From a virus (lineage: Duplodnaviria > Heunggongvirae > Uroviricota > Caudoviricetes): a DNA stretch of 15,345 nucleotides. The stretch is from the IMG/VR virus record IMGVR_UViG_2529292919_000012. One strand, written 5' to 3'. The stretch's first letter is position 1; every line of letters begins with the position of its first letter. Of this stretch, positions 1-2,245 are shown one piece after another. The position numbers are program-made.

Positions 1-2245
1 AATGAATACACAGTGCTTATTCGTACTAATAAAACACCCAATTTTCTGTTTCTTGGTTGTGTCCAAAGTTATATTCAATATCTGGTGTTGATGTATCAAT
101 ATTCTTCATCCCATCAACAAGAGTTGATACAACAGCCAAATCTTGTTTGATTCTCATCAAATGGTATTTCTTTCGGCGCAATAAACTTTCAATGGCAAGT
201 TTCTTCGTCGGGAATGCAAAAGATCTTTCTGCATTTTTTGCTACTTTCTTAATTGCATATCTATTTCTCCTTTGTTTCCATTCCTGTAACCACTGATTTG
301 GTGCTGGTTTAAAATTAACAATCCAATGCGCAGGAACCAACCATGCATAATGCTCTGTCTGATGAAAAGCTATATATTGAAGTGCGAATATTTTGATCCC
401 ATCTTCTTCAACTGTCGCCTGGAATCTCCAGAAAACAGGCATTCCATCATGTTCAGTTTCTGATTCAGGAAAAGGTACGCTCCATGATTTTGTCATATCT
501 CACCTCAAATAAGTGGTTTGCTGCCTAATTTCATTTTCTGGCGACCAACACAAGTCATCTTGCTGTCAGTTGTTTGGATTTCCGGTAGCCTGCCGCGTAA
601 ATGGCTACGTTTGGAAGACATACACCAGTTTCTGGTTGCTTATGTCCAAACTCATTCGCGTACACAATGGCCGCTCGCTCCAGATTGCGTCTGTATTCTT
701 TCTGTTGCCAGATCACGTCCTGTGCTATGAACTTAATTGGCTTAGCGTCTTCTATGCGCTCAGGCGTTTCGTGAGTACCTTTAGCCTGAATCTGCGCTCT
801 GCTTAGAGTAGGGCGGTGTAATACTTCTGAACTTATTGCTTCTTCGCGGGCCAGTACGCCGTTAGCTAATGCCTTTGCCTTTAAACGCTCACGACGACGA
901 GAACGTGAATTGCCTTTGAACTGAGTTCTGCGTGTCATATAGACCTCCTGATGAACTTTGGTGGTGTGGTCGGTGGGAGACCCATTTCGACCTGTTTCGG
1001 CCTACTTCAATTCGGCAATAGTCCCGCAGGCCTCGCCGCTTTACGTGCGACATATTCCCGTCCATGAACCCTTCACCACACCCCAAAGTTCACTTTGGTT
1101 ATTGCGCTTTGTCAGCGCCGTAGATTCTTGCTTGAATCGTTGTATATTCACCGCCCTGGTGAGTAGTGCGTCCTGCTGATGTGTTTAGTATCACCGACAG
1201 TGGTATTTATGTCAACACCGCCAGAGATAATTTATCACCGCAGATGGTTATCTGTATGTTTTTTATATAGATTTATTTTTTTGCAGGGGTGTGTGGCTTG
1301 GGAGGTGATCGAGAGATCTGAATTGCGATGTTTAGTGAGTTGTATCTATTAATTTTCAAATAAATACAATTGGTTATGTGTTATTGGGTGAAGGGGATCG
1401 TGAGGTAAAGAAAACCCGGCGCTGAGGCCGGGTTGTGTGTTACTTAAGAACGAGTCCGTTTAAGGCATCAAGGATTTTGGAAACATAACTTCCAAAAATG
1501 TAGGCGCAAAATGCGAACACGAAACTGACAACGACCGCAGATGCCTTGATGGTGATTTTTGCTGAGCTAATGCTTGTCTCAATACCTGACAGACGAGAAT
1601 CTACAGATTTTATATCTGACTTTACTTCAGCGAGATCGCGCTTGATGTATTCAACATCAGACTCTAGCTTTGCAACTCTAGCCTCAAGCATGTTACCTCC
1701 GCCGTTTCCTCCACCATGCCGTGAGTATGCATCATCAGTGGAATAGTGTCCAATTGGGCGAGATATGTTTTGATTTGGACGAAGCTGAGCAACCTTGTTA
1801 TCTAAACTCATCGCGAACTGATCCTGTTATCTTCACGTCAAAAAACGAACTTTTTACATCAATTACTTCGCCTTTATCAGGATTAACCAGTGATGCTCTA
1901 ACTTCGAATATCCCAGGCTTGATAATTTTCACCCTTGGGAAGTTAATTCTCATAGAAGTTGATACGATGGTTTCTCCATCGTTGGCTTCTGCTACCGTAA
2001 AAAACTTATGGTTGGAGTACAGTTTTGTGTCAATTGGTATCGGTATTTCTTGAGCATTGAAAACCTCAATGCCTATGGAATATTTTTTTGTAGCCTTAAG
2101 GCCGATAAAAAAAGCGCCAAATGATAGATCCACTTCATGGGAGTCTTTATCCATTTCATAGATAAGAACTGGAGTTACTGGGTTGCCTTCATCCATCGCA
2201 ATCGGAATGATATAAGAAATACGTTCTTTAATCATTTACGTGTTA

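Follow-up and report, generated by a model that had tools for sequence, protein, structure and literature searches.

The DNA considered here, a 15,345-nt stretch recorded in IMG/VR as IMGVR_UViG_2529292919_000012 and called the window throughout, belongs to a lambdoid prophage of Escherichia coli. Its gene orfB is the last one of the cI operon, in which cI is followed by orfA, orfB, a terminator and the OL/PL region; in the direction of the window's numbering, the minus strand carries an N-type antiterminator, PL and operators, the terminator, orfB, orfA and cI. At the DNA level, the cI–cro segment shows 99.2% identity with HK97 and 97.8% with lambda. By gene order and by this identity, the window is that of a lambda-immunity phage in which orfA-orfB take the place of rexA-rexB. 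The first-pass annotation, made from the sequence alone, had placed orfB where RexB sits in lambda, and this position is borne out: the gene lies downstream of cI and orfA, and ahead of the terminator and OL/PL. What follows examines the structure, relatives and neighbourhood of orfB, and the tentative proposal that orfA and orfB form an exclusion or abortive-infection module that is expressed in lysogens. The features of the immunity region are as follows.

555–938, minus strand: N-type antiterminator, a complete open reading frame (ORF) of 127 residues, 57 bits against Pfam N_peptide.
About 1187–1255, minus strand: PL promoter-like site and three operator repeats, which we take to be of the lambda OL type; boundary of the immunity operon and the N operon.
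1413–1434, minus strand: intrinsic terminator directly 3' of the orfB stop codon, at the position of lambda tImm.
1440–1811, minus strand: orfB, coding for 123 residues, a predicted tail-anchored coiled-coil membrane protein; phrog_6136, function not assigned.
1798–2235, minus strand: orfA, coding for 145 residues, a predicted cytoplasmic all-β partner (immunoglobulin-like, Ig-like, sandwich); phrog_5893, function not assigned.
2243–2955, minus strand: lambda-type cI repressor, first gene of the operon, broken in the window by a 1-nt deletion in an A-run.
3056–3256, plus strand: cro, beyond cI.

Cargo of differing kinds is found in the slot between cI and the terminator, a hotspot in this respect: lambda has rexAB there, HK544 has two other hypothetical genes, and other E. 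coli (TW14425, EC28 and others) have a gene for a P63C-domain protein. When window positions 1300–2300 are compared, the flanks match 881 E. coli records, of which only 14 contain the full cassette. The stretch of about 1 kb around orfB is 99.9% identical to a prophage of enteropathogenic E. coli E2348/69, and is complete in just 14 of 5,426 complete E. coli genomes.

Within orfB, six stretches can be distinguished, all on the minus strand.

1719–1811: residues 1–31, disordered hypervariable N-terminal peptide, which co-varies with the kind of upstream partner.
1692–1718: residues 32–40, the Gly run HGGGNGGGN; its DNA, GGTGGAGGAAACGGCGGAGGTAAC, is also strongly Shine–Dalgarno-like and lies upstream of Met41.
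1545–1691: residues 41–89, coiled coil of seven heptads, by heptad register.
Start of the 1545–1691 stretch: core, the first 20 or so residues of the coil, MLEARVAKLESDVEYIKRDL; near-invariant, and a recombination junction.
1482–1544: residues 90–110, single C-terminal transmembrane (TM) helix by Kyte–Doolittle hydropathy (type-1 tail).
1443–1481: residues 111–123, conserved amphipathic tail, SKILDALNGLVLK.

In the AlphaFold2 model, calculated with a 38-sequence alignment, residues 1–40 are without secondary structure (predicted local distance difference test, pLDDT, below 50 over residues 1–34), and residues 41–122 form one continuous helix. The H32-GGGNGGG-N40 motif is present, with G37–G39 nearly invariant among relatives. 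Leu, Ile, Val or Met occupies 93% of the a and d positions of residues 41–89 in a single register, a score that none of 20,000 shuffled sequences reached (shuffle mean 0.45). Hydropathy has its maximum, 2.1, at residues 92–110 (AVVVSFVFAFCAYIFGSYV; Kyte–Doolittle, 19-residue window). The pLDDT, heptad and hydropathy values agree with the three-part architecture that the first-pass annotation had described, namely a Gly-rich disordered N-terminus, a coiled coil and one C-terminal TM helix. That annotation had also given orfB a short basic tail. The tail is indeed short, at 13 residues, but not clearly basic: with two Lys and one Asp, it is amphipathic and weakly basic.

orfB has no signal peptide, its N-terminus is hydrophilic and disordered, and its single TM helix falls within the last 35 or so residues. 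This is the layout of tail-anchored proteins, and it is common to all six tail types found among the relatives. Since a signal peptide is lacking and the sole TM helix lies at the extreme C-terminus, orfB is most likely a tail-anchored inner-membrane protein with about 90 N-terminal residues in the cytoplasm; residues 111–123 would then probably be on the periplasmic side. The coiled coil probably forms trimers or higher oligomers, to judge from its sequence and its matches. A profile of the orfB family compared with the PDB finds mainly trimeric coiled coils, with the tail needle gp26 at E = 8.9e-5, and SadA, Lpp and sigma-1 also among the coiled-coil matches. The later heptads carry β-branched residues at both a and d, a combination that favours trimeric coils according to the Harbury rules.

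Relatives of orfB occur in more than 90 fetched loci, and were found in 73 protein clusters and in 80 IMG/VR loci. In the conserved core, 57% of the identical amino acids are encoded by differing codons; such abundant synonymous change points to selection on the protein, not to recent exchange of DNA, and on this sequence evidence orfB is a real gene. In the type-1 tail, F99, C102, F106, G107, Y109, K112, I113, D115, A116, N118 and L120–L122 are near-invariant. That specific residues of the TM helix and tail are so conserved argues that this part is more than a passive anchor. Promoter-like sites inside orfB (1752–1724 and 1582–1555, minus strand) are no commoner than in shuffled sequence and are given no weight.

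The gene does not travel alone. In every fetched locus that is not cut by a contig end, a small co-directional ORF overlaps or abuts the start of the orfB relative. In 73 loci this partner is of the orfA type; the other kinds are a protein of about 120–130 residues with a CxxC...CxxC pattern (phrog_4293) and one of about 90 residues (phrog_4231). The next gene upstream of the cassette nearly always encodes a prophage repressor: among 41 distinct upstream genes, HTH_3 was found 25 times, the phage CI helix-turn-helix domain 14 times, S24 13 times and Arc/Mnt five times, and annotated repressor-linked examples come from Enterobacter, Yersinia, Salmonella and Serratia. In one Providencia variant, the cassette lies among tail genes, beside an Arc gene. 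The variant with the 90-residue partner (IMG/VR loci L092–L098, about positions 3337–4309) follows a Mnt/Arc-type repressor and not one of the cI type, so the association extends to lysogeny-maintenance repressors as a class. Among 1.84 billion representative proteins, 300 clusters were retrieved at E ≤ 1e-10, most of them with 90–150 residues and the layout of orfB. Judged by these sequences, the two genes form a prophage module that is widespread and uncharacterised.

The partner in the window, orfA, ends within orfB; its stop codon overlaps the orfB start by 14 nt. It has neither a signal peptide nor Cys, and it is confidently predicted as an all-β sandwich (pLDDT 86.6, predicted template-modelling score 0.82). 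A profile of orfA has no match among PDB sequences, and searches with the model retrieve only generic Ig-like/E-set sandwiches: Foldseek against the PDB gives RhoGDI, MD-1/MD-2, Der f 2 and GM2 activator, all with a TM-score (a measure of fold similarity) of about 0.5. Among viral folds, an uncharacterised protein of Anoxybacillus phage A403 matches best. A function drawn from these folds was rejected as too unspecific, and the likeness to lipid-binding sandwiches is a lead only. The orfA-type partners are extremely divergent (13–25% identity); few positions are conserved, and the fold pattern is kept. A homology search with this divergent alignment returned only entries named 'hypothetical protein', from Enterobacterales.

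Partner and membrane protein are joined in a modular fashion. For comparison, the orfB relatives were split into N-terminal peptide, core and tail, and 54 distinct pairs were clustered. The invariant core consists of the Gly run and MLEARVAKLESDVxYIKRD. Partner clusters predict the clusters of the N-terminal peptide (adjusted mutual information, AMI, 0.88; Mantel r 0.60), but not those of the tail (AMI 0.16; Mantel r 0.11). Three unrelated partner families and at least six unrelated single-TM tails are joined to one invariant core; a single type of partner and N-terminus is seen with three tails, and the type-1 tail is seen with all three kinds of partner. DNA homology to Salmonella phage epsilon34 and to E. 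coli LR-60 ends at about residue 40 of orfB. From the clustering, the mixed combinations and this break in homology, the core is, as far as sequence comparison can tell, the junction of two exchangeable halves. Such a pattern fits a role of orfB as the constant membrane component that is served by exchangeable partners.

The first-pass annotation had further compared orfB with XhlA-type haemolysins. This likeness stands with respect to layout and weak collinear profile similarity, but does not extend to membership of the family. XhlA proteins (PF10779; for example B. subtilis PBSX XhlA, SPP1 gp24.1 and XpaF1) have a coiled coil at the N-terminus and, after it, one TM helix at the C-terminus; residues 41–123 of orfB show the same order at the same size, 83 residues. 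Against Pfam XhlA, with its gathering cut-off of 34.7 bits, orfB scores 19.3 bits, over the coiled coil only. Among its relatives, 27 of 38 match at E ≤ 0.01 (best E 8.3e-6), and none of the 38 reaches the cut-off; more members are matched by FlaC, an archaeal coiled-coil family, than by XhlA. Five Bacillus phage proteins, each with about 53 bits in Pfam, were aligned as bona fide XhlA. In hhalign, the orfB family matches this alignment with 77% probability, over 28 coiled-coil columns only. The hidden Markov model (HMM) of the orfB family reaches 36.3 bits with XpaF1 of Bacillus phage J5a, collinear from coiled coil to TM helix, and among 3,950 ORFs it matches family members and XhlA proteins, and nothing else.

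Two defining features set the families apart. All five aligned bona fide XhlA proteins carry N-T-T-W-I-x-R before the TM helix, with N49, T50, W52, I53 and R55 invariant; in orfB the motif is missing, and SAKITIKAS stands at that place. All five (SPP1, 268TH008, J5a, CUBc25 and SplendidRed) are encoded in a lysis cassette beside a holin of the XhlB type and an endolysin, whereas orfB has orfA on one side and the immunity terminator on the other, with no holin or endolysin as a neighbour. Also unlike XhlA, orfB has 40 additional N-terminal residues (the disordered peptide and the Gly run), belongs to an immunity operon, and has a variable upstream partner. Because of the score below the cut-off and the failure of the NTTWI.R motif and the lysis cassette, orfB is not assigned to XhlA; its architecture is XhlA-like by sequence, and remote homology is possible.

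An additional complication is that orfB may have two translation starts. Met41 (1689–1691, minus strand), preceded by GGTGGAGGAAACGGCGGAGGTAAC, is a candidate internal start. The calculated pairing with the anti-Shine–Dalgarno sequence is −10.8 kcal/mol at Met41, which is in the top 0.8% of ATGs in the window and the strongest of the operon, as compared with −4.1 at Met1 and −3.1 kcal/mol at the orfA start. At the corresponding position, 54 of 57 loci have ATG and both relatives with Val use GTG; the TTG in the 57th locus (L099) is a search artefact, as the Met is encoded by an adjacent ATG. Of 38 sequences, 27 contain GGAGG, a modest excess over the 20.6 ± 2.8 expected from synonymous codons, and the mean duplex energy upstream of the position is −10.5 kcal/mol where −9.0 is expected. 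The product would have 83 residues, the size of SPP1 gp24.1, and dual starts are known for SPP1 gp24.1, SPP1 gp26 and lambda S. Against the start count the Leu that some distant relatives carry in place of Met41 and the tendency of any Gly run to resemble a Shine–Dalgarno sequence. On this evidence, a short isoform of orfB is possible.

With these properties, the function that we favour, tentatively and at rather less than an even chance, is that of an exclusion or abortive-infection module of the lysogen, in which orfB would act on the membrane and orfA would be the controlling or specificity subunit. The first-pass annotation had likewise seen in orfB a plausible effector that would compromise the membrane once activated. 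As cargo in the operon of the prophage repressor, both genes would be expressed in lysogens together with cI. The cytoplasmic part of orfB would comprise the disordered peptide, a Gly hinge and the oligomerising coiled coil, and orfA, as a small cytoplasmic β-sandwich, would most likely bind the variable N-terminal peptide and so keep orfB inactive. A superinfecting phage might disturb this complex; the coiled coils could then gather the TM tails into a bundle, the resulting lesion would depolarise or permeabilise the membrane, and infection would be aborted or excluded, as it is by RexA-RexB from the same genomic slot.

The context supports a two-component module that is expressed in lysogens. 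The near-invariant core and the conserved residues of the type-1 TM helix and tail appear to exceed what a passive anchor needs. Exchange of partners, N-terminal peptides and tails around a core is typical of sensor–effector systems, and the extreme divergence of orfA-type proteins would be expected of a component for specificity or sensing. The collinear similarity to XhlA can be added to these points, as proteins of that family act with a partner holin to disrupt the membrane (SPP1 paper). Several considerations weigh on the other side. The co-variation of partner and N-terminus could come from linkage alone, as both are adjacent DNA on one side of the junction, and freely swapped TM tails are as compatible with a simple anchor as with an effector. 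A single-TM orfB is very different from RexB with its four TM helices, and the fold searches give orfA a generic Ig-like fold, from which nothing specific follows. Neither protein matches a catalogued defence system in PADLOC-DB 2.0.0; orfA has no match there, and orfB has weak coiled-coil matches only (CorA-like, 0.0039; LmuB, 0.034). Scans of both proteins with Pfam and NCBIfam give no family above threshold, and a literature search found no publication on the family beyond the genome papers of epsilon34 and of a Mannheimia phage.

The modular pattern also bears on a non-lethal form of superinfection exclusion, a rather unlikely alternative in our estimate, in which orfB anchors or scaffolds orfA at the inner membrane's cytoplasmic face, and orfA blocks DNA entry or another early step. 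It would explain why unrelated TM tails swap freely while partner and N-terminal peptide stay paired, and why the partner is the hypervariable component. The position beside repressors, where prophage expression is expected, suits it as well, and exclusion activity is known for other repressor-operon genes, for instance in Pseudomonas phage Fc02. It accounts less readily for a type-1 tail and a core coil conserved beyond the needs of an anchor; moreover, just 13 or so residues are predicted to reach the periplasm, where injection-blocking proteins usually act. The similarity to XhlA points instead to holins: orfB could be an XhlA-type co-holin or antiholin that tunes the phage's own lysis, or that triggers premature, abortive lysis with the holin of an invader. 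We regard this as unlikely. The collinear match (36.3 bits with the HMM, 19.3 bits in Pfam) and the candidate start at Met41 with its 83-residue product are what it would predict, and neither XhlA nor SPP1 gp24.1 does harm by itself, both being lethal only when the partner holin is present (SPP1 paper). Unlike every bona fide XhlA examined, orfB has no lysis cassette, holin or endolysin beside it, it lacks NTTWI.R, the hhalign match is confined to 28 coiled-coil columns, and XhlA does not come with a paired, variable partner upstream.

The pairing itself has suggested toxin–antitoxin-like addiction, in which orfB would be a membrane toxin and orfA its labile antitoxin, so that the pair stabilises the prophage or the host lineage and has no anti-phage role; the first-pass annotation had named a toxin held in check by orfA as its second option. 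The translational coupling of two small genes, the upstream position of the putative neutraliser, one family of membrane proteins with different upstream partners, and the constant presence of a partner in complete loci all agree with such a system. We nevertheless consider it improbable, as the cassette was not seen to have a promoter or operators to itself and no DNA-binding antitoxin was found, the pair is embedded in a repressor operon, and neither protein matches a known toxin–antitoxin family in Pfam, NCBIfam or PADLOC. That orfB is a secreted or cell-surface haemolysin with a role in virulence is scarcely credible. The idea derives from names: RefSeq calls several orfB relatives 'hemolysin XhlA (family) protein'. 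The Pfam description behind the name cites XhlA of Xenorhabdus, which we take to be a large haemolysin of the two-partner-secretion type, unrelated to the phage proteins of about 80–90 residues. The XhlA-family members examined are proteins of phage lysis cassettes, and orfB, having no signal peptide, is by prediction mostly cytoplasmic. The name is thus probably a misnomer for these relatives, and misleading where virulence is inferred from it. The label has already given rise to a published reading in terms of virulence, in which the Mannheimia phage homologue is discussed as a possible haemolysin (PMC4553209).

A more far-reaching proposal, rather unlikely in its entirety, is that the orfB family and its three partner families constitute an undescribed, widespread class of defence in prophage immunity operons, resembling polymorphic systems in that an invariant core joins two halves, with the Gly run doubling as an internal ribosome-binding site that yields two products. 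The partner and its matching N-terminal peptide may then be the 'sensing' half, and the coil with its exchangeable TM tails the 'effector' half. The long form may be controlled by the partner, and the short, XhlA-sized form of 83 residues may follow a logic like that of holin and antiholin, or of SieB and Esc.

Some properties of the surrounding prophage are of interest in their own right. The deletion in cI lies in the A-run GAAAAAAG at about 2872–2880, where lambda presumably has A7, and splits the ORF after about residue 26. The otherwise near-identical cI of E2348/69 is intact, with 237 residues. The broken gene reflects either a sequencing error or the inactivated repressor of a defective prophage. 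The stretch homologous to 1413–1434 is labelled 'terminator' in the immunity-region records of HK542, HK244 and mEp234. The N-type antiterminator resembles P22 gp24 by eye, and at its place the RefSeq annotation of E2348/69 has a small pseudogene fragment only. Further along, an apparent IS21-type insertion sequence (5595–7396, minus strand; recognised by eye) contains ORFs of 340 and 260 residues that resemble IstA and IstB. It seems, again by eye, to interrupt an apparent phage primase/helicase gene (4741–5544 and 7453–8580, plus strand); if this is really so, the prophage is probably replication-defective. Downstream of the ORFs of the nin region, and on the opposite strand to them, lies an ORF of 319 residues (11408–12367, minus strand) with a signal-peptide-like N-terminus (MKKSVIAGVFIALSFTTCSAIANS...); possibly it is cargo that codes for an envelope protein.

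Taken together, orfA-orfB represent a different two-gene module in the Rex slot of a prophage that has lambda's own immunity region, and the cassette is conserved across Enterobacterales and, as a variant, in Pasteurellaceae. With a single-TM candidate effector and partners of 90–160 residues, it offers a simple and genetically tractable comparison to Rex. If the proposal of phage exclusion is true, a new modular family would be added to prophage-encoded defences, and the functionless PHROGs 6136, 3556, 6324, 12602, 5893, 4293 and 4231 would be accounted for.

Two isolated phages carry closely comparable pairs. In Salmonella phage epsilon34, gp45/gp44 (and likewise gp40/gp39 of g341c) are direct homologues of the cassette at the same place after the repressor; the genome paper of 2008 likened gp45/gp44 to rexA and rexB as genes expressed by the prophage, and noted that they had no match in the databases (PMC2629481). 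The epsilon34 homologue of orfA is 74% identical, and gp44 shares the N-terminal peptide and Gly run of orfB. From the core onward, gp44 differs, with a coiled coil and a TM tail of another kind (…QTWKIVIALVITVLIAVFSKYYIK). Genes 55/54 of Mannheimia phage 587AP2 (KP137435; locus L102, 8617–10187) follow the order of the cassette, with cI, partner, single-TM protein and terminator. The partner is a zinc-ribbon protein of 126 residues, a kind also found in some enterobacterial loci. The membrane protein has 161 residues, one TM helix, a core-like motif (LDARLRQVEGDVREIK) and 33.2 bits against Pfam XhlA; unlike orfB, its TM helix is central and followed by a C-terminal coiled coil of about 75 residues, and its host belongs to the Pasteurellaceae.

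The comparison can be extended to systems made up of other proteins. Prophage defence pairs of mycobacteriophages, such as gp30/gp31 of Sbash, follow a Rex-like logic, in which the prophage expresses a cytoplasmic and a membrane protein from genes close to the repressor. These proteins appear unrelated to orfA and orfB, and the likeness is one of description. Rex itself is the oldest known abortive-infection system, marked by exclusion of superinfecting phages through loss of membrane potential, and its mechanism is still debated. Neither orfA nor orfB has a Rex match in PADLOC, Pfam or NCBIfam, and the proteins differ from Rex in both sequence and fold: RexB has four TM helices where orfB has a coiled coil and one C-terminal TM helix, and RexA, with about 279 residues, contrasts with a β-sandwich of 145. 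What the two systems share is their arrangement. Like rexA-rexB, orfA and orfB are two genes directly downstream of cI that end at a terminator next to OL/PL, with one product predicted to be cytoplasmic and the other membrane-bound, and with expression expected in the lysogen; the flanking cI, cro and operators in the window are of lambda's own type.

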